Below, in pieces: positions 14,801 to 58,774 of a stretch of DNA of 64,000 bases (position 1 is the first letter of the stretch; the number at the start of each line of letters is the position of its first letter). Source of the DNA: Lingula anatina (lineage: Eukaryota > Animalia > Brachiopoda). The stretch lies in NCBI GenBank assembly GCA_051362555.1, contig CM120648.1:19960587-20024586 (forward strand). Reading direction: 5' to 3'. A program made the translations under genes and the position numbers. The notes beneath the pieces were generated by a model, which did no database searches, was not told the DNA's origin, and saw only the letters and a list, made by a program, of their open reading frames with translations.

Positions 14801-15763
14801 ATTTAATTTTCTGTAAAATAAGTCTTCTTTATATGACTGAGGATTATTTTTCTTTTTGCCAAGGGATTCCACCTTCTATGTGTTTTTTGTTGGCCATTAT
14901 ACCTTATGTGCCTTGAAGACTGGGCACTTGATACCAATTATACTTGATCTTATTAGACGCATTTTCGATGTAATTTATTTATTTTTATACAATATTTATA
15001 GACCAATATCCCAAAGTTATATGTTAAAATTTTGTAAAGAAATTCCTTTATCTTAGCCACATTTTTGTTTACTTTAAGATTGAGTAATTTTCTGCTAGAA
15101 TGGTGTTTGATATTCTTCTTCTCTTTATTCTACAGCCGCTCCACCTGCCTCTCCTGACAGAGCAGCAGGTAAGTAGTGCACATGTAGTAAAACAAGATTC
15201 CGTCTTTTGCTCATAATCTGCAAGAGTTGTTCTTAGCTTGTCGATTAAGTATGTGAGTTCCTGCATTCTTATTTTCATCAAACTGTATTAATAATGTTAT
15301 ATTAAAATTGACTATACCTTACAATTTTAATTGATTTTAATGAATGTTAAAACATTCAGTATTTATCACCCAGTTATGTTTTGAGCTTACTCACTTGTAT
15401 TCAACAGAGAGGATACATTTTTAAGAAAAAAATGTTTTTTTTTTTGGAAATTGCCGATAAACCTTCAGAAACAGATGAAAGCTTCTAATTTATTTGATAA
15501 CTGTTTCACAAAGTTAATTGACACTAAATACATTCAAATTTTGTCAATGATTACAATACTTTTTTATGCTAAAAAGTTTTATTTTAACCGCACTGTTTAT
15601 TGTACAGTTCTTTTCAAAGGTGAAAGTGGATCTCATACCTCTGGGGAAGAAAACATGAGTAGTATAAGAATGTTGACGATATGTCGATGTATGAACAGTC
15701 CCTGACAAATGAAATAAATTAGATTGAAAGCATGTCTATAAAGATTAAGGTCTAGTCTCTCAC

Positions 15764-15794
<31 letters not shown>

Positions 15795-18700
15795 TTGAAG
15801 AAGGCACATCAGCTGAAAACTCAATTGGGCGCTTGATACCAATTATACTTATTACATGCATTTTCAATCTAATTTATTTATTTTTATACAATATTTATAC
15901 AATATACTGCGGGATTAATACGATGATTTGGATAAATATGCACGCATTGCAATACATAACAATATGCATTATGCTAAAATCATTTAGTTTGGACATAGCT
16001 TATTGTATTCATCGCAGTGGCAGAAAGGAACCATCTAGATGATATTGACAAGGAGCTATTGGAAAAAATTGAGAAAATTGCCCGAGGGGAAGATGTGGAG
16101 CCAGAGAAACAGGTCACAATTTGGGATTTTGCAGGACAGGATGTCTACTACACCACGCACCAAACATTCCTCTCAGAGCGGATCATCTACTTGTTGGTAT
16201 TCCGACTTGACCAGGACCTCGATGATAAAATCCGTGTATACAGGGGAGAGAAGACGCTGAAAGGTATTGTTGAGCTTTATATCTTTACATGTATAAGCTA
16301 CTCAGGGCCCTGATGTAAATAATGGCCTATCAACTGTGTGTAATTTCTTTATTAAAAGATCCACATTTTTAAATCTCTCTATTGCTCTTAATATATATAT
16401 ATATATATAACATTGAGATTTTAGTAGCGTTAATTTTAAATGGTTCCGATGAGTGTTTTGGATTTTAATATTCTAGTGATTTTAAGGATTTTAGTTATAT
16501 TTACCATTGTAAGCCGCCCAATAAGAAACATTATTATTATTATTATTATTATTATATTATTGGCGCTATTTTTTAGCAATGCTGAGGAGAAAACACTGAT
16601 TAATATTCATCTTTGCATTAACATCAAGGCTTTGTATGTATTTTTCAGAGTTTATTATGTTTTGGTTAAACTCAATCCATATGCACACTATTGGAAAATT
16701 GAGGGAAGAAGACAAAAATGCCATGCCATACGTCTTGATTATTGGAACTCATAAGGACATGTTATGCCCACAGGTGAAAACGCTTTTCTTATCACAATTA
16801 TTCAATTACTACCATACTTATTGTACCACCAGCGTAGGCGCTGGCGGTACACATGGTTTTAGTCCCGACCCGTATGTTCCGCCGGTTCCGTCGGCTCCTG
16901 CGGCTCCGCCGCCAAGTCACCGTTACCGCTTCTCCTCCTAGACGGTAAGGGCCTCCATACCCATCTCTTCGATTTAGGTCACCTATAATCTCAACATGTC
17001 CACGTAAAATTTGGGCTTTGTCGGTATTGGGGTCTAGGTGTGGCACTTATTGCAATGCACCCTTGTCCAAAAATGGCAAAATTAAATGCATATTATCTCC
17101 CCTACGGAAGGAATTATGGGAAAAATTTCTACAGACAGCTTTCCAAAAGTCATATGTGTAGATTTCAAATATGCCCTTGGATTTGACCTTTAGAGTTTCG
17201 AGTTACGCTGTATCCAAAAGTAAATATTGGTAGTGAAAGCAAAATGTGCAGTACGGTAATGGATAATAAATTTTGAACTCCGGAAAAATAAAACATAAGG
17301 CTTGGCAAAGCAGACAACTTGTGGTCAAAATTGATATTCTTTCATCAAATTTGAACATCTGGAACTTCAGAGCACCTCCCATTTCAAGAATTTTGACCAA
17401 AATGATGTTTTCTTTATTTAAATTAATCTTTTCTGTAGGAAATTTATGGCACATTATGGTAACTCAAAAATTTTAACATTTAGTCCCTTCCCAGATAGCA
17501 ATGAGCGGTCGGGCCGACGTCGGCATTGGTCGGCACGGTCGCTGTCGGCAGTCGTTGTCGGGCCGACGTCGGGCCACTACTAGTGACCCGACGTCGGGCC
17601 GACGACTGCTTCACACCGTCGGCCCGACGTCGGTATAACGGTGGCTCATCAGCTGTGCGTCGGGCCACTACTGGTGACCCGACGTCGGGCCGACGACTGC
17701 TTCACGCCGTCGGCCCGACGTCGGTATAACGGTGGCTCACCAGCTGTGCTCGATTTGCACTAAGCGGCCAATTTCAAATCGAGGTCACCCACACTAAGCG
17801 GCCATAGATCGTTGCAAGTGCACTTGACGGTTATTTCATATTTTCCGTATTTTGCACCAAATTGTTAGGTAAGTATTTACTTTAAAGTGTTTATGTTTTT
17901 CGTACTATAGGTGGAGATTTATTTGTTGTAGATGAATTAACGAAAACAAGCAAATCTGTCAATAATTTGTTAGTCGTAGCTGCAGGCAGTTGGCGCGCTG
18001 CATGCCACCTTTGAACCAACGTCGGGGCGACGTTGGGTTTCCGGCGGCCAAAAAGATTTTCCCGCTCAAATTCTTTTATGCTTTGAAAGACATTTCAATT
18101 ACCACATTTCATGTATAGACAATTTATAAATGTGAATGAGCAACGTTCTAGTACTTTTTTTTTGTACTTAGGAGTATATATTGTTTATATTTTCTCTAGT
18201 TGAATTTGAAATGCTTATATAATAGGGGTATATAGCAAGGCTGCATGATACTAACATGTAAACTTATAATGTCAGCATGGGTTTAACAATGGATAAACCT
18301 TATGGCATACATTCCAAACTGAGTTTAGCATTAAGGGGTATAATGTCCACTCAGATTTTCACAGGTTTTCTGTTCAAAAATGGACCTCAGTAGGCTAACC
18401 TAAAATATCCAGAGGTGGTTCTTTTAGGAAGGGGGGGGGGGGCAAGTTTAAATTGAATTTTTTTCAAGATGTTTAGTCAAATACCCACAGGGTATGATAT
18501 AATAATGTTTCTTTTTTGGTTTAGGCTCATAATTAGACAAGGCATTTTGTGCACATTACAAAGCCACACTTAATATGTATCTCATATTTCTCTTATAGTC
18601 TTCCATCATGCATTACTACCTATTTGTCGCCTGTGTTGAGCAGTCAATCCTCACAAGAAAATACACTTGAAAGGTATGTGTGTATATAGTTAAAGTGCTT

Positions 18701-21700: not shown

Positions 21701-24700
21701 AGTCATATACTGGCAATCTAAATGTGACCTTAAAATTGACCTTAAAATTGACCTTTAACCTACTTTTCACCATGAACTGAACTTTGCAAATTTTGCTTTC
21801 CTTTTATCTCCAAAACTGGCAGAGATAGGTCCCTAGTTTCTATTGAACTTGAATAGGAAGTCATATACTGGCAATCTACATGTGACCTTAAAATTGACCT
21901 TTGACCTACTTTTCATCATGAACTGAACTTTGCAAATTTTGCTTCCCTTTTATCTCCAAAACTGGCAGAGATAGGTCCATAGTCTCTATTGAAGTTGAAT
22001 AGGAAGGCATATACTGGCAATCTAAGAGTGACCTTAAAATTGACCTTTGACATACTTTTCACCATGAACTGAATTTTGCATATTTTGCTTCCCCTTTATC
22101 TCCAAAACTGGCAGAGATAGGTCCATAGTTACTATTGAACGTGAAAGGAAGTCATATACTGGCAATCTAAGTGTGACCTTTAAATTGACCTTTGACCTAC
22201 TTATTATCAAGAACTGAACTCTGCTAATTTCTTTCTCTTTTAACTCCAAATCTGGCAGAGATAGGCGAATAGTTACTATTGAAGGAAGTCATATACTGGC
22301 AATTTACTGTGACCTTGGAATTGACCTTTGACCTACCTTACGATGAACTTAACTTTGATTGTACCATTTTTAGTTATATATATATTTTTTGCATATTTTG
22401 AAAATTCTTGTTGATTGCATTTTTACAGCTTGTTAAGCACAAGACTGGTGGCTGTGTTCCTTATTTTGTGTATGTGGGGGTCTATACGAATGCGCTTGCT
22501 CCAGCTGGTGGTACAATATTCAGAGGCGATATCGCCTCTCTGATCCTCTAGTTCTATGTATAATTTGTATCCCTTCAACCATATCACGATTCCTGACGAG
22601 TGACTTAATTATTTAGAAACTTTTCACTATGTGACTATTTGTGGATGGCATGATTTAATGTTGGGGGAAAAGGGTGTCCCTTGCCCACTGTACTCCATCC
22701 TAATTTTATAGGTTCATTGCAGCACACCCATTTTTCAACTTGAACGAAGTGGACTATATCATATACACATATATACATGTACATACACACACCCTGGTAG
22801 ATGTTTTCTTTCGCTCTGACACTTAAGCATTATTATATAGTAGTGAAAAACTACAAAAGAATCTTAACATCTTTTCATTCATAGGGCGAGGTTGAAAAGA
22901 TTTTTGATAAACTCAAGAAGTGTCTCGATGACAAGCAGGTACTCAAGGACCACGTCTATCGATATTTTGCCATAAGCAACTTGGCCGAAGACGATGAGGA
23001 GTTTGCTGAAATAAAAAGAGCGATCGAAGATTTGTGCGGTTATAGCAGCGACAGTGAGGCTACCGTTCAACATCTTCCAGTGAGTTGGATTAAATTGGAA
23101 ATGAATTTGGCAAAGAAGAGTGAAGAAACACCCATCATAAGTATTGAAAAATTGATGGAAATGGCGCAAAGGGTAGGACTCCCTGATGGAGAATTACAAG
23201 AAAAATTCATTCCTTACCATCACCGTCAAGGCGACATCCTACACTTTAAAATTGATGGACTGGAAAGTGTCGTCATAATAGATCCACTTTGGTTAGCAGT
23301 TGTGTTTTCTGCCATCATGACCCCGGCCAGCATTCACTCTGGATGCAGTCGCGGCCATGTCCTGAAAGATGAGCTTGAAAGAGGAGTCCTAAAAGAGGAG
23401 GTATTTGATGAGTATCTAAAAGAATTCAAGATGGCCGAAAAAAAGACTGAAATCATTCGACTTATGCTGCATTTCGACTTGATGTTAGAAATATCCCAAT
23501 CAGTTGAAAACCCTCTGCCTGGACATGGAAAAAGAAGATTCCTCGTACCCAGTATGCTGGTATCAAATAACAGTGCGAATGAGACAAATCCGCAGAAATA
23601 TTTGCTTATCGCATTCCCTCATATTCTGTTTCCTACTGGGTTATTTCATCGTCTGACCATCCGTCTTCTAAGGAAGTATAAAGCTCAGCAATATAAAAAT
23701 AACATCCCAGTTGTCGGGTTTGACAGCGCCTCCTTCCGCCTGGCTGATAAACAGTCGGTGCTGCATCTCGCCATTGAAAATAAGGCCATGAAGTTGTTTA
23801 TAACTAATGCCACTGGACTCCCTCCAAAGACTCACGTGTATTCAGAAGCAAGAAAAACAGTTGAAAACGAGTTGACAGTCCTTCGGGATACATACTGCCC
23901 CAGGATGCATTTTGGCTACAGCATCAGGTTAACAAATGACGGACCCAATATTCCAATAAATGCACATGATGTCCAAACAGCCGATTCCATATGTGCGTAT
24001 GTAGAGAACTCTGAAGTGTCGGTAGATTTAAGGCCATATCGCGTTTGGTTTTCTGGTAAGCAGTTTGAAATATCACGTAGTGTTGTTGTGAATAGACATT
24101 AGGCCCTATGCTATTTTAACATAGAACATGCATTCCGTGTTAATTGGTTCACAGATCTTAACATTTTAAAAGATCCCTGATTACACAGCATGTAATATCT
24201 GAAACCAGATACCATTAGAAAATTTAGGTTTGATTAGTTTTAATTTTCAAAATAATTTATCGGGAAAAATATATTAAGGATATTTCTGTTTTGTACATAT
24301 ATTTTTGAAAATATTGATTTTTTACACAAACACTAATGACATACAATGTTAGTTATTTCTTATGAATACTCAATTGTATATGCAATAGACTAAAAAATGC
24401 TCAATTAGAAATTAATGGGAAAATTTATATTAATCTACCCTTCTTAACCCTCAAGTGACCGAGTGGGGTCATTTACGACCCCAGCCATATGATTTAAAGT
24501 GCCATCTCTTTATTTTTTATTCAAATTTTCTTTCCTTGCATGAGTTTGTCAGTCTACTAATCCTACACACTTTCCCAGTTTTTTGTAGGGATCAACCAAT
24601 TAGTGTGGCGTATACATCAAAAACTCTTGTGGGGTCATTTATGACCCCAAAGAGAACCATTGGTTTTTACATATTAGTTTTTAAATTTTATTCAAATGTT

Positions 24701-27700
24701 TTGCCCAAGCAACACTGACAGGAAAATGTCACATGCATGTGTTTCATGCAACCAGCCAGTGTGCCCAAAACATAGGCACAAATAAGTGGTTTGTGAAGAT
24801 TGTGCTTGAAGTGTTACTAATAGTGCATCGCTGAATCTAATTTCAGTAGCTTTGTTGGAACTTGTTCTCATAACTGGATCTCTCATTTTGACGGTTACAA
24901 TTTTCGGGTATTTCTGAAATCTAAATAATTCTGTCGATATCATATTATACATATATTAACAAATTGTTTGTGTGGATTTTTTTTTATACACAGCTGTGGT
25001 AGTAACATACATGTAGGTTGATTGAATGTGTTCTGAGTAGTATGACTTCCTTACCAGCATTAGGGTATTCCCTACTCAGCAAGTCAGCTAATTATTCTTA
25101 TTGAAGTTAGCAGGATGCTATCTCAACATAAATCAAAATATTTTTTCTCAAAGTAATTTTGTAATGTACTTTTTTCATTTAGTGTGGCAAATAAAAAGAG
25201 AAATATTTCTGCAAGTGGAAACTGACAATGACTGTCTAAATACCGGTGTAATGTTGTTCTTAAAATCTGTGCTTGGTTATTTCATGCAATAAAAGTATTA
25301 TTACCAAATACTTATTACATTAGATCATTATAAAATACTTGTCTTAAATCCTGGGAGTAGTATGGGTGTGATAAAGCCTCAACAGCCTTTTATAATAAGG
25401 ATCCCTGTACAGAGCACAATGGGGTCATAGATGACCCCACTTGGTCATTTCAGTCAGTAAAATAGCTTGGTCTCTTGAGGGTTAAATGAACTATGTACTT
25501 GTTTGTAACATTTTTATTAGAAACAAAAGGCAAGATATCGTATTCAGATTTTACTCAAACATGTTATGAATTAGCAACCTGTGATAACAAGTCATTAGAA
25601 ACATGTCAGTGAAAAATAAAACCAAAATTAACAATCATTTCGGAATGACACTTGGATTTTGAAAGGAAAAGTATGGCGTATGATAGGACATAAAATATTT
25701 TGATGGGGCCCTAGAGGCCAAGTGCCAATATATAATATATATTAGGCCAATCTTACCATTTTAGCAGCCCCAGACAATCAAGACCGTCATGCAGCCAAGT
25801 GTCCTGAAAACGAGGCAAGTTATGAGCTTTTAAATACGTTTGTGTCTAAGTACTGCGCAGCAAACACAGAACGTTATTATAACGTTACCATATCATATGT
25901 CCAAAAACATTTTGGTAACATTATAGTAACGTTCTGTGTTTGCTGACCATTATCCTCACTTGCACAAGTTTTAGTAAGACCATGAAATTAAATGTACTCG
26001 TATATACACAATCATAAGAAAAATTGGATACACTTAGGCATAAATGCACACTTTTCACTCTGTTACACTTGCTATACGACCTCCGATATTTTATATATGA
26101 TAAATATATGATAAATTTATATGATAAATTTCACATAAAGACAGTGTATGTGTGCGTTTCAGTACAAGAACGATTCCGAACCGAGAGGTCGTGCACTCAT
26201 TATCAACAACAAGACATTTTCCGTGGACTGGCTTCCAGAACGTGATGGTACCGAGGTAGATGTTGTTGCCTTGAGGAAACTATTCCGTTACCTCCATTAT
26301 GAGACAGACGTTATCAGTAACCTGACTGCAAATGTGAGTACATTAATAAGATCATGGTGTGTTTGTAATAAAACGAACATCGTAAAAGCCAAATGGCTTT
26401 TAGGTTTCAAAGACTAACATACATTTTGGTGATATCTAAATATATTTATCAGTGACACAAAGATGATACAATTGATACTTGAACCTTTTGGTTCAAAACA
26501 GGTGTTGTCAAACAAACTTTTCGGTCACATTTTATTATGTTTATCTATTTCACTGCAATATATTTTTCTACTAAAATGAAGCTTTTCACTCGTTTCTGTT
26601 CATTGCATGTATTTGTATTTATATGAGAGATGTATGGTACACTGTATAGTTATACAACATTGGTCAAAAAGGTTGCCCCACCCCTATTTACATGTACTTT
26701 TATTTACAAATGATCACCTTACAGCTGTAAATTGTTAGAAATAGTGCTTTTTATTACGGATACCATGTCTAACGTGATTAATGGTTTTAAAAATACAAAA
26801 TAGTGGTGAAAATATACATATTTTATACCATTTAGTAAAATTTATAAGAGGTACCCCCTCAAATCGACTGTTTCACTGTGACTTCTACAGATGTAAATGT
26901 CTATAAAATTGAAAAGACGCCATCAAATGTCACCAAATTCACACACAATTAGCATTAGGGTATGCTCGTTAAAGGTCACATGCCTAACAGCGTGTGTCTA
27001 CCGGGTACTGCAATTATCTCCTGTAGATGGCGCGACAAGCCTTCAACACGGGTTACAATTCTGTTTTGTGGGATATTGTCCCATTCTTCTTAAACAAGTT
27101 GGGGGAGTTGGTCCACGTTTTTATGGGGTTGGTTTTCCTTTGCATTGCACACTCCAATTCATGTCACAGTTGATTAGTAAGTTTAATATCAGGGCTCAAA
27201 GATGGTGGTTCCATCCTTAGACCATTGTGTTTCTTTAACAAACACTTGCCAGGCTAGAGGTGTGAGCAAGTGTGCAGTCATGATAAAGCCTGAAGTAAAC
27301 CCCAAAGTCAGTTCTTGAAGATGGAATGAGATATCAGCTGAGAATGCTATGTTCAGTGATCCCACAGGCACCTGAACATGGCCATCCATCACTGGAAGGA
27401 AGTCGATTTTGATGCAGAATCAAATTATTTCTTGTATCCCATCGATGGTCAAACAGAGTCCATAGACATGTTTAAAAATGCCTCTCGGAAGGGTGTGTGT
27501 AGGGTAATATCGCCTGAGGTGTTAGATCAATCCGCATATGGAGAACATTCCAAGCCCATGGGAATAATACATTGTTCCTTTTGGAACAAAACGTAACAGG
27601 GGTATTTTAATGTAACATTCTCAACAGAAATCTCACTCCATTTGCAAGAGATGACTTCAGGGATGCTACTGGCTTTGTTATGACAACGCACTTGCTCACA

Positions 27701-30700
27701 GCTCTCATCTGGCAAACGATTTGTTGCAGAAAGACAGGGCTCTGAGGATGGGACAACCATCTTTGAGTCCTGATTATATCCTACTGAGCACCTGCGACAT
27801 AAATTGGAATGTGCATTGCAGAGGAGAACCAATTCCTAAATAATCTTGACCAATTCCACCACGCTCTTTAGGCGGAATGGGACAATATCCCACATAACAG
27901 AATTGTTGCCCATGTTGAAGGCTTGTTGCGCCATCTACAGGAGATAATTGCAGTACGCGGTAGACGCACACGCTGTTAGCACATGATCTTTAACGAGCGC
28001 ACCCTAATGCTAATTGTGTGTGAATTTGGTGACATTTGATGGCGTCTTTTCAATTTTATAGACATTTCTTTACATCTGTAGAAATCACAATGAAACAGTC
28101 GAATTGAGGGGTACCTCTTATAAATTTAACTAAATGGTATAAAATGTGTATATTTTCACCACTATTTTGGATTTTTTAAACCATGAATCATGTTAGACAC
28201 GGTATCCGTAATAAAAATCACAATTTCTAACAGTTCACAGCTGTGAGGTGATCATTTGTAAATAAAAGTACATGGAAATGGGGGTGGGACAACCTTTTTG
28301 ACCAATGTTGTATACAAACAGACATGGCGTACAATCTACAAATATACCACCATATGTCCGTCCTCGGTGGCTACTACCTTTCACATTCTCTGTTAGCGTC
28401 AAGTATGAATTGATGCTGCCATTTTGCTTTACGATGTCGTTGATAACCCAATTCCGTACGTACCACGTCTATGCAGTCATTGCATGCTATTTCGTTTGAA
28501 GTACACTATGTTTTTATGTCACTTCTTCTTTTATTTTAATGTGTAAAGGAAATGAAGGAAGAAATAGCACAAGAAAGTCAAAGAGACGATCACAAGATCT
28601 ACGATTCTTTCATCTTGTTTCTACTGAGCCATGGTACCGAGGGTGCTGTTTATGGAACGGATGGCTATCCTTTACCCTTCAAATATATCAAAGCCATTTT
28701 GAATAACAGGAACTGTCTTGGCCTGTCGGGCAAACCGAAAATGATATTTATTCAGGCTTGCCAGGGAAGTAAGTTATGGAATGTATTACACAAGCTTGAA
28801 TACCTGCGATGAAAATAACATGCAAAATTATTAAACAAATGTATTGAGATATTAAACTGTATTAACAGTCTGTCTCCTTAAAATTATATTCAGCCACACG
28901 AAACGAATGACGCTTAGTATTATGTAATTGTTTAATTAGTTAATACTGATATCAATTCTAACTTATATGTAAACATATAATCCACATAAGGGTGTATGGG
29001 GTGTTTCATTATTTTTCCATATTCACCCAGAGAGATGGGACAGTGGGACACTCCTGGACGGACAAACAGTTCAACAACCACAGCAAGCACCACCTGCAGC
29101 AAACCTTGGTGATGAGGTACCCGATGCGCCACACGAGATTCCAAAGCCATCCAATGATCCGACTATGTCCGATTTTCTCGAGGTCCATGCGACGTCACCA
29201 GGTACTTTAACCGTGTTTCTTTGTATGCCATTTTACTTAGGCCTTACAAATGTGTTTTTCATCAGAAAAAAAAAATCAAAATGATAAGGTGCACGTGGTG
29301 ATGCTGGGATTATGGCATTTTGCCTCAGGTAGAAGATGGTGTGCATTTTGTGGTCTATCGACATATTGTGGAGAACTGTATTATACGTGTATACTTTAAA
29401 ATGCTCACTACATTACTGCACCAGTAAATACTGAAAATGGTGCATGTATTTTTATACAGTATCAAATAAAATATATGTGCCAAATTTAATTAAAATTTAC
29501 GTACATTTTTGCCATAATGCTTTTAAAAATGCTTTCAAGATCACTATGAAAAACGAAAGTGTGTCGAGATGTTACCTAATTGTATTTGGGAAGCTGTCAG
29601 ACGATTTCTTTCGAAAAAAGACTTTGTAGCTTATGCAAATGTTGAGAAAAAAACATGCCGATTATGGAAAATTCAATTATCAAAATTTAAACTACGTAAT
29701 TCGACAGATTTTAATTTAATTTAATTTAAAAATCGCTATCGTGTATTTCTGACATTGAATTCTCAGTGTGCACAAAATGTAGGCATCGAAGGCATTCATG
29801 AATGTCGACACGTTTGATTCTTTGAATCAGACGCTTCATGTTACTTGATAGCGCAGAGGCATGCCAGGGAAAACAGAGGAAGAAAAACAAGTTCTGGTTT
29901 TTCTTGATTGAAGGCTTCGATTTGTTGAAGGGCAATTCTGTATAGCCTGGTTTCCAAAGATCGTGTGGCAGGCATATCAGCAAAACAAAATGCATCGCCA
30001 AGGACCGGAATGCCATGGCAAAATGTTTTAAGTTTACTTTGTTATTTTGATACAAATAAGCTTCCGGTTGACATAGATTTGACTGGTCTCCAACTTTCCA
30101 TGCTGCACTGTGCCTGACCGAAAAAAAAAAAGCCTTAAAATGAGTAGTGATTCAGTGTTCCAATGATGCCTGCGATGGCTAGAAACGTGACCCGTATTAT
30201 TGGCCTTTTGGAGATCATTTCAGGTCGGTTCACTGTAACACTATCGGCAAATATACTTTACTAATAGTTCCTCGATCTATGCGATTTATGAAATTTGCTT
30301 TTCCGCACTCTCAGTGAGACTAAGTACTGTTATATTAACAAAATAAAAATAAACAGTACCGTTGCATCTACGAGTAAATAATACGTTAAGGCTTCAGTAT
30401 TTTCTGTTTCAGATTACGTATCTTGGCGACACACGGGAAAGGGAACATGGTTTGTTCAATCCATTGTCGATACATTTTATCGTGAAGCACACAAATATGA
30501 CGTTTTACAAATGTTGGTGAATGTAAGTACTGAAATAACATGAACTACATTATTTTACATTGAAAGTGTGTTAAATTCATTAGAACACCAATCAAATATA
30601 AAACATAGCTGCCAGAAGAAGTGACATGTCGTAAGAGGTGACTTATGTAAATACAGTCCAACATGCACAGACTTTTTAAGAACCAGCGAAATGCTCTTCT

Positions 30701-33476
30701 GTTTATTTTGACAGTTTAATCAGAACTGTTCACTTTATGTAATATTTTATTTCACCAGGTCAATCACGCGATCTCTCAAAAGCAAACAACAATGGGCAAT
30801 AAACAGGCACCAGAGATAGTTACCAGCTTACGAAAGAAAGTTTTCTTCAACATAACTCCAGGTAAGCAAAAAGAATCACATCTTCCCGAGGTGTATTCGG
30901 CCGAATAATAAAGACCCGAGATCAAAAGTAAGCAAAAACAACAAACCTGGAACGTGTTAAGGTACAAACAATGCTGCCAGTCCTGCTGAAGATCTCATCC
31001 TTTTATCAAATGTCTCAAATCTCCCACCCAGTTGCAGACCCCACCTACAAAATTGTTTCCCAACTTCAATAAATCATTCCCAACTAAAGCTGGAACTTCA
31101 AGGTTATGATCTTCATAAGGTTATTTTTCTCATCAATGTTATTTCTATGTGTTTCCACCTAAATTGCACCACAACTCCTAGCATTCACGCACCTCACAGT
31201 CATTTATCAGTATATACTTACTCCTCCTGAAGTGATTTGGGATTACATTGAATCAGGTTATCCTTTGGGCGGATTGCTGGCACAATTTAATCTCCTTCTT
31301 ACAGATTTCAAATATTCAGTGTTACATGTTATCCCTACATCTGATCTTCACAAAACTCTTGTAATTTACGATCTTTTTTTTATCCCAACCTGGTCTCGGT
31401 TGATTCTAACATTCCAAGAGAGTTCTCTGTGGCACTTCATTGATGCTGTTATCGCACATGTCCAACATTTTGTTCGTGGTGCTCTTTTAGGTATATCTTA
31501 TATTCAAGATGTTTTCCACATTTTACCGATTATCAACTGCGTCCATCCCTTAAAGGCCCAGTGGGTCACCTGTGACCCACACGTTTGACACGTCACGACC
31601 CACACCACACAAAATGAATCCACTTCATTTTACCATTTCCTATTCCTTATGTACTAGTTTATCCTTGTTGACCAATTAGAAACTAGATCATTATCCTTCA
31701 CTTCACTCAAATATGTCTGCCTCCATAAGAAGGAGTTAATGCTATTGTCTAGTGGGTTTTTATGTGTCTTTATTGTCATCTCAAGGTAAATAATAATTTC
31801 AATATTCTGCCTTTTCATTATAAATACAATAGTCTTAAACCACACAGAAATGTTTTATACAGTTGTTAGCTACGCTTCCAGGATTAAATTTATTTTTTCA
31901 TGTTGTTATTGTAATAAAAAGAGGTTTGTGATATCTTGAAACTTAGTCATTTGTTTACCTCTAAAGCCCAGTGGGTCACCGGTGGAACATAACCAAAAAC
32001 TAGGTCAATGTTGCCCAAAACATTTTTTTCAACATTTATTGATAAATATGCTTATTACAACCCTATTACCTAGGCATTAAACTTTTCATGCAAGAAAAAC
32101 ATGTCCTGGAGTGATCTGTTTTATTATGAGAAATGTTTGCCAATAGGTGCAAGTTGTTCGTGCCAGATTTTTTAATCTATGAGTAAAGCTATGCAATGGA
32201 TTATATTGGAGAGATTTCATGATTCGGCCATGTCCCGTATACTAGATGATATCTGTTTCATTGGACCTCAAAATTCCAAGAAGTGTCAGGTTGATTTTTC
32301 TTGTGTTATGCACATGGATAAACGTTTCCATTAACGCAGTAAAAACCTTTACTCTGACCACTTGTTTAACGTAAACAACCTTTACTCTGACCACTTTTGT
32401 TTATTTTATCTCATCGAAATAGATTCAATACAAATGAAACCTTGGATAGGCTTTTAGGGTTTAATCTGAAATAAAATTTCAGGCATCGGTCAAACGTGTC
32501 TAATTTGGTTCAGTTTTGTTGTGGGATCTGGTTGATTGGGCGAGTAATGACCCACCCACTTATTGTCCATGTGGTTCAAGTATGGTGATTTTGATGATCA
32601 AGGCAACTGCTTACTCCCTTGTTTCATAAAGTTATCTGCTATTCCAGGTTCTCTGTTCGAACCAGTAATCTCATTGTACAACCTTAAATTACTCCTAATG
32701 TGCCCCCTAGTCATGCGATTCCCAGATTATAACTTACTTTGATGTGTTTAGGATCTTATTATTTTTTTACTATTAAAAATGATAATTTTCAGTCATATGC
32801 ACTTTACCTCATTTGCCTTTGAGCAAAAACAGAGCTGTGTTGTGCTAATGATCATTTGGCTACATAAAACAGCAATTTAGATAATTGTGTTTATGTAGAG
32901 AATGTCTACATCAGTGAGATTTAAGTCATCCAGCTTTTTAGCTGCTTGATATTTACCCGCATTGTTACGTAGTGCAGTTTAAGCAGCTACACTGGAAGAT
33001 TACTTGCTTCACTATTTCATTTTTATTTGGACACATTCCACCTTCCCGCATCACCCGCCTTAGTCCTTTTGTTTTTCTCTATTTTTTTTCTTTTTTCACT
33101 AACCAGAGTCTCTATTTCTGCGCCAATAACTATAACTTTGTACATATAACCCTCACTGGGGTAGCGCTAACACTCGCCAGTTTAGCCAAATGCTAAAACT
33201 TGCTGAAATTGGCTAAAGAAAAAGGGCTTGATTTGACTTGTTGTAGTCAAATTATAACCATTTTGATAACAGTTTGACAAAAAAGTGGTGATTTGCCTAA
33301 GAGAAAAAAAAATAGCTAGCGCTACCCTAGCCTCACCTGCCTTTGTCGCCATCGATGCTGATGCCATGTACTTTAACTCTGAGTGGAAAACCATATACAC
33401 TTCTGTCTTTAAAGCTGCAGAACCAACGAAAAAAAAGGCCCAGCTGGCTTGATCAAATTATTCTTTCAAAACTGAT

Positions 33477-33511
<35 letters not shown>

Positions 33512-36500
33512 TGTTTTAAGAGATAATAACTCTTCGTTTTGGCAAAATAAATGAATTTTCCTGGAGTAAACAACACTTTTCCCATACTTACCAATGGTTA
33601 ATGAATCCATTTTTACATTCAAAGTCCCTGTTTTTTTTCTAAAAAGTTTGTTTTTTTGTTAAAATCTCTTAAAAGATTATAACAGAGTACAGCTATCAAT
33701 GGAAGTCACGTGATCTGAAGACAAGCTCAGATATCAGAATAATAGCTTTAACTGCTGTTTTTGTGGTAAAACAGAATATATTATATTTCTATGAGTTGTT
33801 CACAATGTATTTATTGTGAAATAAAGATATCATACAAAGAGTTATTATCCCTTTAACTATATGCAATACAGCTAACACATTTCAAGGAAAACTGATAAGT
33901 GTACCTAAAGCACAGATCAAATGACTAAAATGCAGGTTGAGCTTCAAACTTTTGGGTTTGATAGACCTATCATAAATGATGTGCATGGGGACTTTGGATT
34001 TTAAAAGTGGACCTGGGGAATTGGGCTGTGCCCGGGAGGAGGGATAAATAAATATTTCTACATTTTAATTTCTGCTATCTTCTCCTATACAATTAGAGGG
34101 ATTGCATTTCAATGTTGATAGTCAACCAAACATCAGGGATGCATGTGCAGGGGAAAATAGGATTTTCAATACACTTGGGGGTTGGGCTGTCCCTGAGGGT
34201 GGTTTATACTAATTTTTTTTCACATTATAATTTTTGATATTTATCCCAGACAATAGCAGTGAGGAAGTTGACATATTTATGTATTGAATCTGTTTTTTTT
34301 TTTTTTTCTTTTTTTTTTGATCAGGAGAAATATAGTTCTATCAATTGATTTGACAATTCTTTTTCAATACTTTGCTATAGGAGACAGAGATGACGGTATG
34401 TCTCAAGAAGAAAGAATTTTAAAATTACCTGCACCACCCCAGACCAGGCACTCTGCCTCACAAGGCAGGGAGGAGATCAGAACAGATGATCTCAGAGATA
34501 CATACCTGAGGAAATTCTCCATCACTCCAGAAGGTGGACATGTGCATCTGAAGGAAGTTGGAGTATTCCTGTTAGTGCCTCCAGGAGCTCTGGCTGAAAC
34601 TACAGAAATGTTCATTGGTATAAGTTGGAGAGAAGAAGACATGCCACCGCTGCCACCGTGTCAGACTAGAGCAAGTCCAGTTGTTGTCTGCGGACCACAT
34701 GGCCTGACATTCAGAAAACCAGTGTACCTGTCATTTTATCACTGCATATCAGGCACACGTCAAAGAAAGATGGGAAAGATCTGTCCTGAAAATCTGACAC
34801 AGAGTTCAAGAATGGACAATCCATTTTACGTATGGCATTCAGTAACTCACTTAAATGACCCTTGTAAGTGGAAAGTATTGAGCAGTGATTCTGCTGTGTT
34901 GACAAACACCAAATGTGTCTTAACCGTGAACCAGTTCTGCAAACACAGTTTGTCATGTGACAGTAAGCGTCTTTCTGCCTTGGTGTTTGGGTCATTTCAG
35001 CCTCGACATGTCTCCTTGCTGAAACTGATGGTGTGCTGTGTCAATGACACCAGAGATGAGGTAGAGGTGAGAATTAACATATAAGTGGTTTTCATTTTTG
35101 AGTGTTTATGACTATTCCTGACATATTGGCATAATATCCGTGCTGTGGATGATTGCAAATAACTGAGGTAAAGTTGTAATTGGTCACTGCATTAAGTTCC
35201 TTTGTTAATTTTCATTCTTTTGAATAATAATGTGCATTGTATTTCAGTTGGCTATTTGCATGACATAACCCAATAAATCATTTTGTCATCATGTCTGTTG
35301 CATTTGTTTGTGGATATCATTTTTTGATACCCCTAAAATGCATGTGTGTTGCTATTGAAGGGTAAATACTATTTGTTTGAATGTTGTAGAATGTGACAAC
35401 TAAAGCTAAGGAATCTCTCCAAATGGAGATGTTAGATCTGGAAAAGAAGTTTCAATTCTTAACTTGTGAGTACAGTGAGAGTAAAGAAAAGGAGTCCTAT
35501 GATGTCAGCCTATCGTTGGACAGGTTTGAGACAAAGTGGAACATGCATGAAGATTGTCCTAGAAAGGTTGGTATTAATGAGTTATATTTTTCAATATTGT
35601 GCAACAAAGATGTGTACACTATAATATGCAGGCCATTTTATGCACTGAAAAAGGTGGGCTTTTATTGCTTATATTTTACAAAGATATTGTGTAACAAAGA
35701 TATCCCATATAGGCGTAAAGGGCCTGTAGTGTGATGATTTTGGCAGATTAGTGTGAAAATATCAAAATTAGTTTCTTAGATAATGATAGAGAGAGCTATA
35801 ATAATAGATAATGATAAAGAGAGAGTGATAGTAAATAAGTCTAAAAAAGACCCTTTTGCGTTTTAGGTGATAAAGTATGTGAAATTGCTGAAAAATGAAA
35901 CAGAACATGTAATATATACCCTGAGGCCTAAAATGACAGAGGGACTTGATGTGTTTGATTGCAAGATACACATAAAGCAGGAAGTATCTGAGGATCAGGA
36001 AGAGGATATCAAAGTGCTGACATCCACTGTGTTTGACATCCACTGGATGTTACCAGTAAGTATAGACAGGGAATTGGGTTACTATGAAGTGAGGAGACAT
36101 TATCTTATGTTCAGTGTGATATTGTCTTTGTATGATATCATAGTAAGTAAAACATTATATTGTTGTTGCATCTATTGGCAATAATCAACCCCAAGCTTCA
36201 GCATAGTAACTATAACATTATACTTTTGTTGCATCTATTGGCGAGGTCCAACCCAGAGCTTCAGCATCATTCAGGACCTAGATTAGTAATGACTAAAATG
36301 CAATGTCTGTAACTGTCTTGTTTCTTGTCCACACATTTAAAGGGCCAAGAGCTCTCCGTATGAAATCAATATTGCACAATAAATACATTGTAACTGCTCA
36401 TACAAATATAATATCATTCCATTTTACCACAAAAACGGCAGCTATAACAATAAATCTGAAATCTGTGCTTGCCATCTGACCATTTGACCTCCATAATAGA

Positions 36501-37325: not shown

Positions 37326-39764
37326 CCCATGATACATATGATAGGTAATTAATGTCCATATATTTGATCATTTTGGGGAAATCCAAGATGGATTGGATTT
37401 TATAGGCACTTCTAAGGCAAATGAGGGTAATTATGATATTTGTCAAAATAATTAGGGGTACACACTTGTTACCCACCAGATATATATCTCAATGTCACAT
37501 TTTGGTATTTTTAATGTGTGAATTTCAACTGCAAACAGCCTGAAGCCATTTACTAACTAAGAATTCTGAATGCCTATATACAAAGAGAAACATAGAAATA
37601 TTATTATAATTGCTGGTTTTTATGTTGATCATCATAGTCACCGCCAATTGACTGAAGACTAATGATGCCAATATATTTATATATTATTATTATTTGTTCT
37701 TACAGCACCTGTTTAAAACATCCAGAGAAACCTCTGACTTGGGCGAGTCCAGCCTTATGGATGGCAAGTCCATTGTTAAGAATATACAGAAGAAAAGGAA
37801 ATACAGCGATGACGATGATGATGATGATGATGATGACAGCAGTTACCATCATGGCAACCCTTCAACATCAAAACAAATCAAGTTGACACCAAGCAATACA
37901 TCCCCTGCTAAAAGAAAAAATGCTACATCAACTAAAAAATGGAAGACTTCAGATGATGAAGATGTACGTTCCTTTGAGCTACATGTATTCCTAGGGACTT
38001 TTCTCAAAATAATTAAAGATTTCCTTAAAACATTTTTTCACAATCTGATGATTTCATATTTTACGAATGAAATCGGTGGGTTCCATGAATATTGAGAACC
38101 TATAATTTGTGCACTTCTATCACCGACAATATTCAAGGAAAGCTGTGTTAGCTATTTTATTCTCTAATAAAGAATAATATTGCACCGAACTATGTACATC
38201 AGTATTTTCTGCTTTTTGTCTGTTCGTTTGACAGTTTTGCAGAATTGTTTGTATTTAACTTGTGTTCTTCTTCTTTTTTCTGTATTTATTATTGTTTATT
38301 ATTAATACCATTATTTCAGGACCAACTAAGATGGGGGCCAGTCTCTGGCCAGGAACGGGAGAAGCAAGGTGACGCCAACTACCAAACAAGTGGCAATTTA
38401 GTTCACGAATCCCCACCTTTACCAGTCACTGCCCACCGCCTGGAGGAACAACGTGGCGTCCACTTTCAAACAAGGAGGAAATCGGGCCATGACCCTGTGG
38501 CTACTGGGGATCAAGACCAGGGTGTCCCCAGAACAATGGAAAACCAAGCTCTTAACCCGGCCCATGGGGATAATCAGTTAGAAAGGTTACCTGCGGCAGT
38601 GACACATGAGATTGCTGGAGTTCTAAGACAGATCCCTGCTAATTCAGGCAACACAAATGTTACCCTCAATTTGCAACTGGTTAACCAATATTATAACTCA
38701 GAAAAGGCATCAATGACACACATGAAAGAGAACGATGTGTCAACATCTTTTCACAAACATATTCCTCCACGTTTGAAAAAACAACTGAATGAGACACTTT
38801 CTCAAGATGATGTATGGGACCAAGTAAAGAAGATGCATGGCATTTCAGATGAAGCCCCACGTCCTCCCGATATTGTGGCTTCTTTGTTGTCTCAAGTTAA
38901 GGGTTCTATTGCATCTTTCATCAGTGTGTTGTTAAAGTTAAAAGAACGCCACAGAGAAGGACAGCAAGACATTCCACAAAATTTGATTGATGAAGTCAAG
39001 GTAACTGACAATTTGGTCAAATGAAAGAATTAGTTTTTTTTTTCAAATTTTACACGCAAGCATACAGAATGATATCATGTTTTGGCTTCAGAGATTTTAT
39101 ATTTTGCAAACATCTGTAGTATTTGTTAAGATGCTCCTCAGCAAATCTATATCTTCAAAATCCAAGTGAAATATCATTAGAAGGTATAAAAAGGAAAACT
39201 TAATCTACATGTTGCATATTATATTTTTTATATATTTTTAAACAATTAAAAAAATTTAAAAATGCAAATATCTGCTTGCTTCCAGCAGGGTGCTCTTTCA
39301 AAATTGAAGTTTATGATAAGGTGTAAAAATGCACTTGTCTACACAGACTACTTACTTGGCTTCTTATATTTCTTTCCTAGGATGGGCTTAAGGGTGAAAT
39401 GGAGTATAAGAAACTAAAACAGAATAAGATCCACTTTTCTGAAGAACTTTATATTGATATTGGAAGTATTTTAGATTACTGTAATCAAGATGACATGGTA
39501 CCAGATGAAGAGATTACAGTGCTTAAAAATACTGCCAAGGAAAATCCACGAGATGCCTGTAGAAAGTTGTTTGAAAGACTAATTGCAAGTAACCCTGAAA
39601 AACAACCAATCAAATATTTAAAAGATGTCCTCAGAAAGTGCCAACATTGGCATCTGGCAGATGAACTAGAAGTTAGCCACCAGGATGTAGAGGATGAATT
39701 ACAGAAATATGAAGTTGGAGGTGATCGGGCTACTTGTGAAGAGCCATCAGCGATAGGAATTTAA
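2834..39764 (+). CDS. Multi-exon gene: NHL - Roc - COR - caspase - ZU5 - UPA - death-like domain - CARD protein (~2,060 aa)
   Basis: Predicted exons: 2834-3770, 11547-11777, 12227-12382, 12597-12647, 15136-15168, 15620-15658 or 15661 (weak), 16018-16263, 16649-16773, 22885-24055, 25765-25814, 26163-26333, 28549-28768, 29031-29201, 30413-30522, 30759-30861, 34381-35066, 35390-35566, 35867-36055, 37706-37963, 38320-39000, 39381-39764. All introns are GT-AG except one GC-AG. Phases match at every junction and no internal stop was seen. Confidence 0.7.
4827..4894. repeat. (TA)n microsatellite; others at ~8784-8863, ~40536-40594 and ~56772-56850; (ATT)n at ~4620-4697 and ~37275-37325
   Basis: Directly visible simple repeats. 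Confidence 0.95.
5331..7085 (+). mobile_element. Partial Helentron-like non-autonomous element with ~141-bp tandem array (6100-7085); another partial copy at ~10490-11085
   Basis: Its start CGCTGGCGGTAC.CATGGTTTTAGTCCCGACC matches 16839 onward. Unit TATCTCCAAAACTGGCAGAGATAGGTCC...GTGACCTTGAAATTGACCTTTGACCTAC is repeated about 7 times. Confidence 0.7.
7741..9720 (+). repeat. Deleted copy of the ~2.9-kb repeat family found at 41640-48990 (another part at ~12760-14120)
   Basis: Shares the TGTA.AGACACAGATGTGTCTGTACA hairpin, the (GTC)n head and long downstream blocks with 42978-45898. Confidence 0.8.
8910..9142 (+). mobile_element. Short Helentron-type (HINE/DINE-like) element
   Basis: 5' CTCTGCCAAGGAGGTTAT...TGTTTGTCTGTC, 3' inverted CTTGGCAGAGG followed by a short hairpin and a CTAGTT end, inserted in a T-rich site. 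Confidence 0.6.
11547..11777 (+). CDS. Roc GTPase exon with P-loop (G1) and switch I (G2)
   Basis: Acceptor TACCAG| (phase 1). Reads RVAIVGPYGVGKTYLAKRL (GxxxxGKT) and NTTGVNI (Roco STxG-like). Donor AAAG|GTAAGC. Confidence 0.85.
12227..15661 (+). CDS. Low-complexity insert exons inside the Roc domain (12227-12382, 12597-12647, 15136-15168, 15620-~15661)
   Basis: Symmetric phase 1-1 exons of 156, 51, 33 and 39/42 nt with AG acceptors and GT donors. They encode D/E/S/P-rich peptides (AASPDDSESPASPDKAA; AAPPASPDRAA). The last exon has a weak donor. Confidence 0.6.
14165..14543. mobile_element. MITE with ~33-bp imperfect TIRs
   Basis: CCTTCAAGAAATCGACGAAAACTGGAAGTGCAT at the left end pairs with ATGCACTTCCGGTTTTCGTCAAGATCTTGAAGG at the right end. 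Confidence 0.65.
16018..16773 (+). CDS. Roc G3 and G4 exons (16018-16263, 16649-16773)
   Basis: [29 protein letters not shown] is the canonical Roco G3/switch II signature; FWLNSI and VLIIGTHKD (G4) follow. Splice sites are canonical. Confidence 0.92.
17200..17465. repeat. ~265-bp segment repeated at ~21065-21329, possible MITE
   Basis: Two near-identical copies. The first has GAGTTAC...GTAACTC ends. Confidence 0.55.
17490..20760. mobile_element. Non-autonomous CACTA/EnSpm-like DNA transposon
   Basis: TIR CCCAGATAGCAA / TTGCTATCTGGG and 2-bp TSD TT (empty site TAGTCCCTTATATCTCC seen at ~21345). Subterminal arrays of CCGACGTCGG-type palindromes at both ends. Confidence 0.85.
22885..24055 (+). 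CDS. Roc G5 and COR domain exon
   Basis: FAISN (G5), LPVSWIKLE, HHRQGDILHF, VIIDPLWL, FLVPSML and FPTGLFHRL are typical COR blocks. Acceptor CATAG|, donor TCTG|GTAAG. Confidence 0.9.
24448..25481 (+). mobile_element. Internally deleted piggyBac-type element
   Basis: TTAA TSDs at both ends and TIR CCCTCAAG(T/A)GACC. Retains a transposase C-terminal Cys-rich relic CPSNTDRKMSHACVSCNQPVCPKH...CEDC (~24700-24810). Confidence 0.85.
25765..30861 (+). CDS. Caspase (peptidase C14A) p20/p10 exons (25765-25814, 26163-26333, 28549-28768, 29031-29201, 30413-30522, 30759-30861)
   Basis: YKNDSEPRGRALIINN, ERDGT, catalytic LSHG, GKPKMIFIQACQG, linker DEVPDA, PTMSDFL, YVSWRHTGKGTWFVQ and KQAPEIVTSLRKKVFF. 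Confidence 0.93.
26655..28310. mobile_element. Tc1/mariner-derived foldback element with ~700-bp inverted arms
   Basis: TA flanks and ends CAACATTGGTCAAAAAGGTTG / CAACCTTTTTGACCAATGTTG. Both arms carry a decayed SPDLNPIEHLW-like transposase motif (minus strand ~27155-27200, plus strand ~27765-27810). Confidence 0.8.
31230..32700 (+). pseudogene. Old Ngaro/DIRS-type RT relic in the caspase-ZU5 intron
   Basis: IDAVIAHVQHFVRGALLGISYIQDVFHILPI..VHP resembles IDDA...GALLAKxDIxxAFRxLPVHP. After an interruption come KCLPIGASCSCQIF (~32130) and ILDDICFIG (~32240). Confidence 0.55.
34381..36055 (+). CDS. ZU5 and UPA-like exons (34381-35066, 35390-35566, 35867-36055)
   Basis: ITPEGGHVHLKEVGVFLLVPPGAL...SPVVVCGPHGLTFRKPVYLSFYHC matches ZU5. 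KRLSALVFG...LKLMVCCVNDT resembles the start of the UNC5/PIDD/ankyrin UPA domain. Confidence 0.85.
37706..39000 (+). CDS. Acidic/basic linker exon (37706-37963) and linker plus death-like domain exon (38320-39000)
   Basis: KKRKYS-D10 and PAKRK motifs, then HIPPRLKKQLNETLSQDDVWDQVKKMHGIS...SIASFISVLLKL, a divergent death-domain-like helical pattern. Phase-0 GT-AG junctions. Confidence 0.65.
39381..39764 (+). CDS. Terminal exon encoding a CARD-like death-fold domain
   Basis: KLKQNKIHFSEELYIDIGSILDYCNQDDMVPDEE...PRDACRKLFERL...YLKDVLRKCQHWHLADELE follows the CARD pattern. Acceptor TTCCTAG|, stop TAA at 39762-39764, AATAAA at 39932. Confidence 0.75.
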   Translation, partial: DGLKGEMEYKKLKQNKIHFSEELYIDIGSILDYCNQDDMVPDEEITVLKNTAKENPRDACRKLFERLIASNPEKQPIKYLKDVLRKCQHWHLADELEVSHQDVEDELQKYEVGGDRATCEEPSAIGI

Positions 39765-53305: not shown

Positions 53306-53645
53306 AATAGCATTTTAATGAATTGACAGACATAACGTTTTCGTTGATATATATGTATGTACGACAATGAGCCTCACCATTCTTTTCATCGCTTAACATA
53401 CAGACATGTACCACGTGCACACTTTTACTTTCGCACACAATCTCAGTCCAAGAAGTTATAATGCTCAGTCTTACGCACGGCCATTATGCACTTACTCACC
53501 TCATTTAAACACAAACATACACTCACACAATATACTACATATAAGAAAACGCACATGGGAGAGCGTTCAGTTTTGTGCAACAATTGGTTTTATGTGCAAA
53601 ATTAAAGCAAGAGGAAAATGGAAAAAGGAGGAATAAAGTTCAAGC

Positions 53646-58650: not shown

Positions 58651-58774
58651 GCAGTTAGAGCCTGGCAGCCGTTAAAGCTGGACAGCGTGTAAGGGCGCTC
58701 GAGCCCATTTTGCTTCAATTAAAATCGGCTTAAGCATAAGCGTCGAAGATTTTTTTGTTCTTTTATCCCTGACA

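Follow-up and report, generated by a model that had tools for sequence, protein, structure and literature searches.

How a GTPase and a protease come to share one chain, and whether the one could control the other, is the question raised by a gene of the brachiopod Lingula anatina. The gene lies within the window analysed here, the whole 64,000-nucleotide stretch at positions 19,960,587 to 20,024,586 of contig CM120648.1 (assembly GCA_051362555.1), and its caspase stands directly behind the Roc and COR domains of a Roco protein. On the + strand, 20 exons between 2834 and 39764 form one frame of 2049 residues with 0 internal stops. Pfam searches on single exons gave the module order NHL, Roc (two exons), COR-A, Peptidase_C14 (three exons), ZU5 and a sub-threshold CARD_2. 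Eighteen introns of this 20-exon model are GT-AG and one is GC-AG, the latter behind a 50-nucleotide linker exon (25765-25814).

The best protein matches of the gene were Lingula anatina RefSeq models throughout. Three of them, P0008 (NHL-Roc) and the COR-caspase models P0006 and P0203, are near-identical fragments of the gene or of its closest copies, and by sequence comparison the older annotation splits the gene into pieces. P0006 (XP_013381226.2) carries the same linker exon, which is also found in P0203, and its caspase is identical to that of the window at 249 of 258 positions. The corresponding values for COR are 307/318 for P0006 and 305/318 for P0203.

RNA reads were drawn from 6 of 9 runs under the same species label (X1, X4, X7, X8; X4, X5, X6), and 6-26% of each run was read. 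In both read analyses joints were counted among the rows listed; unless stated otherwise, the counts are sense-strand counts from the stranded runs X4-X6. The joint between the Roc exons carrying motifs G3 and G4 was spanned by 164 reads, and that from the G4 exon to the COR exon by 108 reads in three runs, with 48 more in a shifted register. The joint from COR into the linker exon (24055-25765) was present in 14 reads of X6 and 5 of X4, with one synonymous substitution, and 84 reads led from the linker exon into the first p20 exon, p20a (25814-26163). Within the caspase, 59 reads joined p20a to p20b, 47 joined p20b to the exon of the intersubunit linker (variant forms had 26 and 14), 105 continued into p10a and 120 connected p10a to p10b. 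Roc, COR, linker and caspase are one spliced transcript, and the joints across them rule out an annotation artefact as the source of the fusion. A sequence-only reading of this DNA had placed the caspase directly behind COR in one chain. The joints and the allelic model P0006 bear this out, and all caspase exons are present in stranded RNA behind Roc, COR and linker. Since they stem from other individuals and show P0006-like alleles at positions 25775 and 25789, the reads prove the exon chain for a member of the gene family, not this haplotype letter by letter. The NHL-Roc joints lie outside both read-covered stretches, and the NHL-Roc linkage rests on P0008.

All five G motifs were located in the Roc domain (GPYGVGKT, NTTGV, WDFAGQ, GTHKD and FAISN), and are assigned as G1-G5 from the Roc consensus. 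Roc is followed directly by COR in one chain, as in Roco proteins (Pfam Roc and COR-A; RNA joint). Pfam found no leucine-rich repeat (LRR) or kinase domain on the 16 exon stretches scanned, so the gene does not fall into Roco groups 1-3, defined by LRR-RocCOR, LRR-RocCOR-kinase and kinase-RocCOR-DD respectively (PMC6337361). The Roc region with both of its micro-exons is identical to P0008 at 277 of 281 positions, and the NHL exon matches the NHL-Roc fragment P0008 at 268/310 and P0059 at 262/307. A possible small exon near 15620 was omitted from the model, as a convincing in-phase donor is absent.

The catalytic and S1 residues of the caspase lie in one frame and fall in the same alignment columns as those of solved caspase-2 and caspase-3. 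His (SHG), Cys (QACQG) and the S1 Arg, Gln and Arg had all been picked out from the sequence, and all are present; Arg1027, Gln1126 and Arg1193, the S1 pocket for a P1 Asp, occupy the caspase-3 columns. The model of P0006, a 96%-identical allele, matches solved caspases at a Foldseek TM of about 0.9 and has the caspase fold with p20, p10 and an Asp-containing linker (Asp1140, Asp1162). The caspase is thus predicted to be catalytically complete and Asp-specific. The three residues after QACQG (window 29031-29038) are highly variable, being KRW in the window, KIL in P0006 and NKL in P0203, with two further forms in RNA reads, and the next Asp is constant.

The cleavage site proposed earlier, DEVPD|A, is a reasonable one, but it has a competitor. 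EVPD|A is conserved in P0006 and P0203 and has a counterpart, ERPD|A, about equally far from p10 in the CARD caspase P0074. The second candidate, TLLD|G (Asp1140), aligns with IETD|S of caspase-3 and reads TLLD|R in P0006. At the other end of the domain, read-through past the donor at 30861 stops at 30908 and gives a short form of 1273 residues; P0203 ends with exactly this peptide.

The earlier label 'caspase-8/10 type' holds for the pentapeptide QACQG and fails for the domain. The best PDB match of the p20b exon (28549..28768) is caspase-2 (E 5e-17), which scores 64 bits against 55 for caspase-8, and the domain tree groups the caspase with caspase-Y relatives; the p20b scores and this placement rule out caspase-8 identity. 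Whole-domain PDB scores were about 132 bits for caspase-3, about 130 for caspase-9 and 123 for caspase-8. No DED pro-domain was found by Pfam on the exon stretches scanned. The clade comprises 12 rows, with SH-aLRT 94 in a tree of 114 domains and 97 in a tree of 30. Its members include CARD caspases and a PARP-caspase of Lingula, a fusion of caspase with RIG-I-like helicase and, from Owenia, the ROC caspase CAH1786849.1. The last is a member of the caspase-Y group according to PMC11463336. By this placement the Lingula caspase belongs to the lophotrochozoan CARD-caspase (caspase-Y) group. The name caspase-Y rests on PMC11463336 because ours is a quick tree in which the reference caspase-2/-8/-9 rows are not labelled. 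NHL-Roc-COR occupies the usual place of the N-terminal CARD pro-domain of caspase-Y.

Table 1. Exons of the Lingula gene, with module content and supporting evidence (window coordinates).
Feature	Position	Strand	Evidence
Exon 1: start codon, NHL-repeat beta-propeller (candidate sensor), phase-1 donor	2834..3770	+	Pfam NHL E 1.4e-22
Roc: G1 (GPYGVGKT), G2 (NTTGV)	11547..11777	+	Pfam Roc E 4.4e-6
Acidic insertion within Roc	12227..12382	+	match to P0008
51-nucleotide micro-exon, Roc insertion	12597..12647	+	comparison with P0008
33-nucleotide micro-exon, Roc insertion	15136..15168	+	comparison with P0008
Roc: G3 (WDFAGQ)	16018..16263	+	Pfam Roc E 1.7e-8; 164-read joint to next exon
Roc: G4 (GTHKD)	16649..16773	+	108 + 48 (shifted register) reads to COR exon
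Roc end (G5-like FAISN), COR-A, COR-B; crossover signal near 23790; phase-1 donor	22885..24055	+	Pfam COR-A E 1.8e-21
50-nucleotide linker exon, COR to caspase, GC donor	25765..25814	+	RNA joints on both sides; same exon in P0006, P0203
Caspase p20, first exon (p20a): S1 Arg1027 (ERDGT, 26241-26243)	26163..26333	+	Pfam C14 E 7.5e-10
Caspase p20, second exon (p20b): His1085 (LSHG, 28630-28632), Gln1126 and Cys1128 (QACQG, 28753-28761)	28549..28768	+	Pfam C14 E 5.7e-17; RNA joints
Intersubunit linker: TLLD|G (Asp1140) and EVPD|A (Asp1162, 29123-29125) as putative cleavage sites; p10 start	29031..29201	+	disordered in P0006 model
Caspase p10 (p10a): S1 Arg1193 (SWR, 30427-30429)	30413..30522	+	Pfam C14 E 8e-6; RNA joints (105, 120 reads)
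Last caspase p10 exon (p10b): dimer strand beta-6 (EIVTS), phase-1 donor	30759..30861	+	solved-caspase alignment; RefSeq P0203
ZU5 exon, phase-1 acceptor; linkage to caspase inferred	34381..35066	+	Pfam ZU5 E 1.3e-19
Two exons, UPA-like by position only	35390-35566, 35867-36055	+	conserved in P0040, P0042
Low-complexity exon	37706-37963	+	part of exon model
Exon ending in helical domain (death domain not confirmed)	38320-39000	+	155/207 identical to P0042 over 37706..39000
Last exon, CARD-like, stop codon	39381..39764	+	Pfam CARD_2 E 2.5e-5, 24.7 bits against cut-off of 28.2

How might such a caspase be switched on? We propose tentatively, at somewhat under an even chance, that nucleotide-dependent dimerisation of Roc-COR activates it, likely in the GDP-bound or empty state. 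The NHL propeller would sense a ligand or perturbation, and Roc-COR would alternate between monomeric and dimeric forms. If CtRoco and DAPK1 are a guide, bound GTP would keep the protease inactive, and its hydrolysis or loss would activate the enzyme. Once Roc-COR had paired, two caspase domains would lie side by side and become active, and the dimer would cut its own linker at EVPD|A and/or TLLD|G, with p20 and p10 remaining associated. Substrates with Asp sites, such as effector caspases or gasdermin, would then be cut, and the ZU5-CARD tail, if spliced on, would add a death-fold docking arm. Roc-COR would stand in for the CARD platform that serves the relatives of this caspase. The gene is likely a one-piece immune or stress death switch, and we infer the immune role from the company that the modules keep.

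Published work on other Roco proteins makes proximity through COR a reasonable mechanism by analogy. Without nucleotide or with GDP, CtRoco is dimeric, and with GTP it is monomeric (PMC5714945); it dimerises through COR-B (PMC6337361, PMC11052575), whose C-terminal segment makes the dimer and unfolds upon GTP binding (PMC11052575). DAPK1 is inhibited by GTP, and Roco proteins are perhaps GTP sensors (PMC6337361); Roc-COR has also been proposed as a dimerising device for the output domain (PMC4104024). A gasdermin gene is present in Lingula (PMC8742441) and is a candidate substrate only.

Several points weigh against activation by COR pairing. The joint between COR and the linker exon has 19 listed reads, fewer than the adjoining joints, and the reads derive from other individuals and from paralogs or alleles that are nearly identical, 90-99% alike in most cases. 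COR also carries non-protease tails (HEPN, death domain, ZU5) and is only distantly related to Roco proteins of known cycle. At least three matches have the reverse order, with the caspase before Roc-COR, and one of these has dead catalytic residues (P0072). A fixed COR-caspase geometry is absent because linker length varies from 17 to 85 residues among the seven relatives in which the COR and caspase profiles both reach the ends. The tether of roughly 20 residues read from the sequence does exist here: 19 residues, most of them encoded by the 50-nucleotide exon, separate the COR-terminal Trp981 (24046-24048) from the first caspase residue, Tyr1001 (26163). Its length is no conserved constraint, however, and the spread rules out a conserved short linker. 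Finally, the caspase may pair without COR, because its beta-6 strand EIVTS shares Ile-Val with CIVSM of caspase-3; the CIVSM motif makes caspase-9 a constitutive dimer, and dimerisation alone activated caspase-9 only partially (PMC1088972).

The shared Ile-Val makes self-dimerisation the main rival. The caspase would then dimerise by itself like an effector caspase, Roc-COR would serve as an allosteric clamp, localisation module or scaffold, and cleavage of the linker, by the caspase itself or by one upstream, would activate it after the clamp opens, possibly on GTP binding instead of hydrolysis. In favour of this course are the position of the Ile-Val at Ile265-Val266 of caspase-3 (PMC1088972), whole-domain scores to caspase-3 equal to those to caspase-9, the alignment of TLLD|G with the caspase-3 cut site and the opening of CtRoco by GTP into an elongated monomer (PMC11052575), whereas the beta-6 residues on either side are polar (Glu, Thr, Ser), Roc-COR-caspases differ widely in this strand (QTEST, SFNNQ, WHESS) and the nearest relatives are CARD-bearing, initiator-type caspases. 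We consider self-dimerisation possible but doubtful.

The AlphaFold model of P0006 (86-row alignment) has a mean pLDDT of 88 and a pTM of 0.62, and its low confidence is confined to the COR-caspase tether (residues 322-330), the intersubunit linker and the C-terminus. Prediction of a COR homodimer (exon residues 58-390, two copies, no alignment used) scored 0.00 against a mark of 0.32 and is informative neither way.

The sequence-only reading expected linker cleavage to release a p10-ZU5-UPA-DD-CARD product. Its ZU5 part stands by Pfam, and a CARD-like domain is present below threshold, but UPA and the death domain (DD) have no Pfam support in the tail exons and a death-domain profile built from collected Roco proteins found no match there. 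For the tail paralog P0042, the single-sequence fold was poor (pLDDT 37) and a PDB sequence search gave E 0.33 at best. Within the tail, 31 reads in 3/4 runs joined the ZU5 exon to the next exon and 29 reads in 4/4 runs spanned 39000-39382. The joint from caspase to ZU5 (30861-34381) was not among the listed RNA joint rows, though rows with 19-28 reads were listed. Both RefSeq copies end just behind the caspase, P0203 by read-through, as models in this family often do at true donors (P0059, P0040), and P0006 in a terminal exon for which a search behind the caspase found no counterpart in the window (best score 17). The window holds no second Roc-COR or P0040-type exon ahead of ZU5, and the ZU5 exon is 218/229 identical to P0040, where ZU5 follows a distant Roc-COR. 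On balance we slightly favour a tail spliced onto the caspase, because the caspase donor and ZU5 acceptor are both phase 1, no other candidate upstream exon lies between 30861 and 34381, and the paralogs are collinear.

The PIDDosome consists of PIDD1, RAIDD and caspase-2, and UNC5 carries a ZU5-UPA-DD module. The Lingula gene resembles them in having ZU5 and a CARD-like domain near a caspase-2/Y-like protease; it differs in that LRR is absent and that the tail linkage, UPA and DD are only putative. Activation could come from higher-order assembly, with Roc-COR secondary; either a separate adaptor or the ZU5/helical/CARD tail, acting within the same chain like an arm of the PIDDosome or UNC5, would bring it about. 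The compatible phase-1 sites with no other upstream exon between them, the CARD-like last exon, the paralogs with NHL-RocCOR (P0059) and RocCOR-ZU5 (P0040, P0041) and the report that PIDD was not found in lophotrochozoans (accessible text of PMC11463336) would suit such an assembly. We nevertheless judge it improbable: the ZU5 joint is not among the listed joints while the preceding joint has 120 reads, X4 reads at 34393 carry a paralog-like base in 21/21 cases, P0006, P0203 and 8/8 other Roc-COR-caspases found end at or just past the caspase, and UPA and DD have no profile support.

Activation through Roc-COR, the reading we prefer, must also be set against the history of the gene. Compared with P0059, NHL is 85% identical and Roc and COR about 30%; compared with P0040, ZU5 is 95% identical and Roc and COR again about 30%. 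Paralogs thus share single modules at 85-95% identity, with adjoining modules only about 30% alike. The COR exon itself is broken in comparison with the HEPN-tailed P0001, being identical at 274/302 positions up to about 23790 and at 48/88 beyond (max-chi 62; 0/500 permutations as high). Behind the break P0001 resembles another HEPN paralog (71%) and the window another caspase paralog (73%); the exchange may have run either way, and P0001 may be the recombinant. The cassettes are symmetric because the donors of NHL, COR and the caspase end share phase 1 with the ZU5 acceptor. Behind Lingula CORs stand caspase, HEPN_DZIP3, ZU5 and a trypsin-like domain, the last in P0096 (XP_013401761.1), where a distant-type Roc-COR is followed by a domain in which we recognised by eye what we take to be trypsin-like His/Asp/Ser motifs and for which Pfam gave no match. 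These comparisons make the gene, on its sequence, a young mosaic. Although its COR is 77% identical to that of P0002, the two caspases are rejected as sisters (approximately unbiased (AU) test, p 0.002), and within this one COR clade the fusion arose a second time with another caspase.

A family of this kind could also produce a recent, nearly neutral exon-shuffling product, transcribed and with an intact protease, in which GTPase and caspase are uncoupled. We hold this to be very unlikely for the present gene. The identities of 85-95% to different paralogs, the crossover within the COR exon and the ease with which symmetric phase-1 cassettes shuffle accord with it, yet several fusion copies or alleles keep all key residues, and the fusion was remade within one COR clade and recurs in three other phyla.

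In Lingula, caspases of this same clade are also joined to CARD, PARP and a RIG-I-like helicase. In P0116 and P0200 (XP_013415815.1, XP_013415812.1; gene models only) an intact caspase of this clade precedes a RIG-I/MDA5-like helicase in the place of the CARDs, a possible one-chain RNA-sensing caspase. In the Lingula Roc-COR-caspases P0002 and P0007 the S1 Gln is replaced by Ser (SACQS) with the other catalytic residues intact, and their specificity is possibly altered. The caspase cassette occurs in other contexts as well, because in a fragment of another record, placed immediately ahead of XP_013381226.2 in the PMC11463336 supplement, the end of the caspase is followed by an exon of another kind, behind which a linker and the start of a caspase appear once more.

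The figures for spread are a floor, as the best 150 of 9305 matches were entered and 188 proteins collected. At least 12 of the 188 match both Roc/COR and caspase, and COR precedes the caspase in at least nine: four from Lingula, those of the annelid Owenia, the amphioxus Branchiostoma and the sea anemone Exaiptasia, and two ENA proteins. His and Cys are intact in 9/9 Roc-COR-caspase rows (window, P0006, P0002, P0007, P0045, P0046, P0052, P0058 and P0064; the truncated P0090 was left out). A single origin is ruled out, since the caspases are rejected as one clade (AU p 2e-59). On the COR tree, a quick tree with long-branch warnings from which P0194 and partial domains were omitted, the Roc-COR-caspase label needs 7 changes, at least 4 of them by starred branches. 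Roc-COR-caspase thus has several origins and recurs in three further phyla, and its repeated origin suggests that the geometry is useful.

Two further arrangements were seen among these proteins. P0072 (Potamilus KAK3578651.1) has the order caspase-Roc-COR-death domain, with Tyr in place of the catalytic His and Asn in place of the Cys, and is a candidate pseudo-caspase decoy. Bcl-2-Roc-COR-caspase occurs in P0046 (Owenia CAH1786849.1, Bcl-2 E 5e-23) and P0045 (Lingula XP_013407220.1, E 0.003). Their CORs group weakly (SH-aLRT 86), and this may be an old lophotrochozoan gene; for the Owenia protein the accessible text of PMC11463336 names the ROC domain only.

Repeats occupy parts of the introns and the downstream flank. 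Arrays of a 146-base-pair satellite lie at 20764-22357 and 6098-7029; over the array at 21-22 kb, strand-biased RNA depth reached 800-1200 (X4-X6), far above the exons and probably from copies elsewhere. An element resembling a miniature inverted-repeat transposable element, with long inverted arms (about 26760-28280, seen by eye), sits in the p20a-p20b intron. Downstream of the gene are a long interspersed element-like sequence at 50019-54524 (-; RVT_1 E 8e-36) and a DIRS-like element at 58676-62345 (+; RVT_1 E 6e-18), the latter with weak RNase H and integrase N-terminal matches.

More broadly, though we would give it well under an even chance, the gene could represent an invertebrate class of GTP-gated, NLR-like receptors with Roc-COR in place of the STAND ATPase and an initiator caspase as part of the chain; in Lingula, sensors (NHL, HEPN, Bcl-2-like) and effectors (caspase, HEPN, ZU5-CARD, trypsin-like) would be swapped among paralogs. 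If so, it would be a 'one-chain apoptosome' that fires upon GTP hydrolysis or depletion, its diversification in Lingula would mirror bacterial Roco defence systems, and caspase activity would read out the disputed Roco monomer-dimer cycle directly. Whether Roco proteins signal in the GTP or the GDP state, as monomer or dimer, is a standing question of the LRRK2 field, and a natural Roc-COR-caspase, if activated by dimerisation, turns it into a fluorescent-peptide assay. It would also offer a possible route to initiator-caspase activation in a lineage reported to be without APAF-1 and PIDD (PMC11463336).

The fusion has already been glimpsed in print. PMC11463336 (Horkan et al. 2024) treats the Owenia ROC pro-domain as a single species-specific case, allows for gene-prediction error in such fusions and, in its table, leaves the pro-domain cell of XP_013381226.2 empty. 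The literature searched, with subscription journals mostly outside it, yielded no paper on Roc-COR-caspases as an animal family, on how they work or on the exchange of effectors in Lingula; as far as that literature goes, the new elements are the support from transcripts, the repeated origin in different phyla, the swapping of modules and a direct assay for the Roco cycle. A close relative in design is the Owenia fusiformis protein itself (CAH1786849.1, P0046), whose Roc-COR likewise runs straight into an intact QACQG caspase from the same clade. It differs in a Bcl-2 domain in front, an 85-residue linker and a COR about 27% identical, whereas the Lingula gene has an NHL N-terminus and read-supported junctions.

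Among Roco proteins, human LRRK2 and DAPK1 and also CtRoco share the Roc-COR tandem and G1-G5, and in LRRK2 (kinase) and DAPK1 (death domain) the output domain follows COR directly. The Lingula gene has neither kinase nor LRR, its output is a protease, and it stands outside all three Roco groups of PMC6337361. Roco-TIR proteins are noted in Aplysia (PMC9334734). A caspase-clan protease behind Roc-COR is also found in Runella, where Roc-COR-CHAT is active in a death pathway and cleaves Runella gasdermin (Johnson et al., bioRxiv 10.1101/2021.06.07.447441). That bacterial CHAT protease cuts after Leu, and the accessible preprint text does not contain 'GTP' and does not address nucleotide control. 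The overall plan is shared with the AP-GTPase (Roco) conflict systems of bacteria (Kaur et al. 2021, PMC8195603): a repeat sensor is followed by Roc-COR and a variable effector, with at least 24 effector types behind COR, caspases included, and many paralogs with different effectors per genome. In contrast, the Lingula gene is animal and intron-rich, carries NHL rather than LRR and a predicted Asp-specific caspase with an intersubunit linker, and is shuffled via phase-1 introns and a crossover in COR-B. The bacterial design of a Roco protein with a swappable effector thus appears to be at work in an animal, and the reads argue against a gene-prediction artefact.

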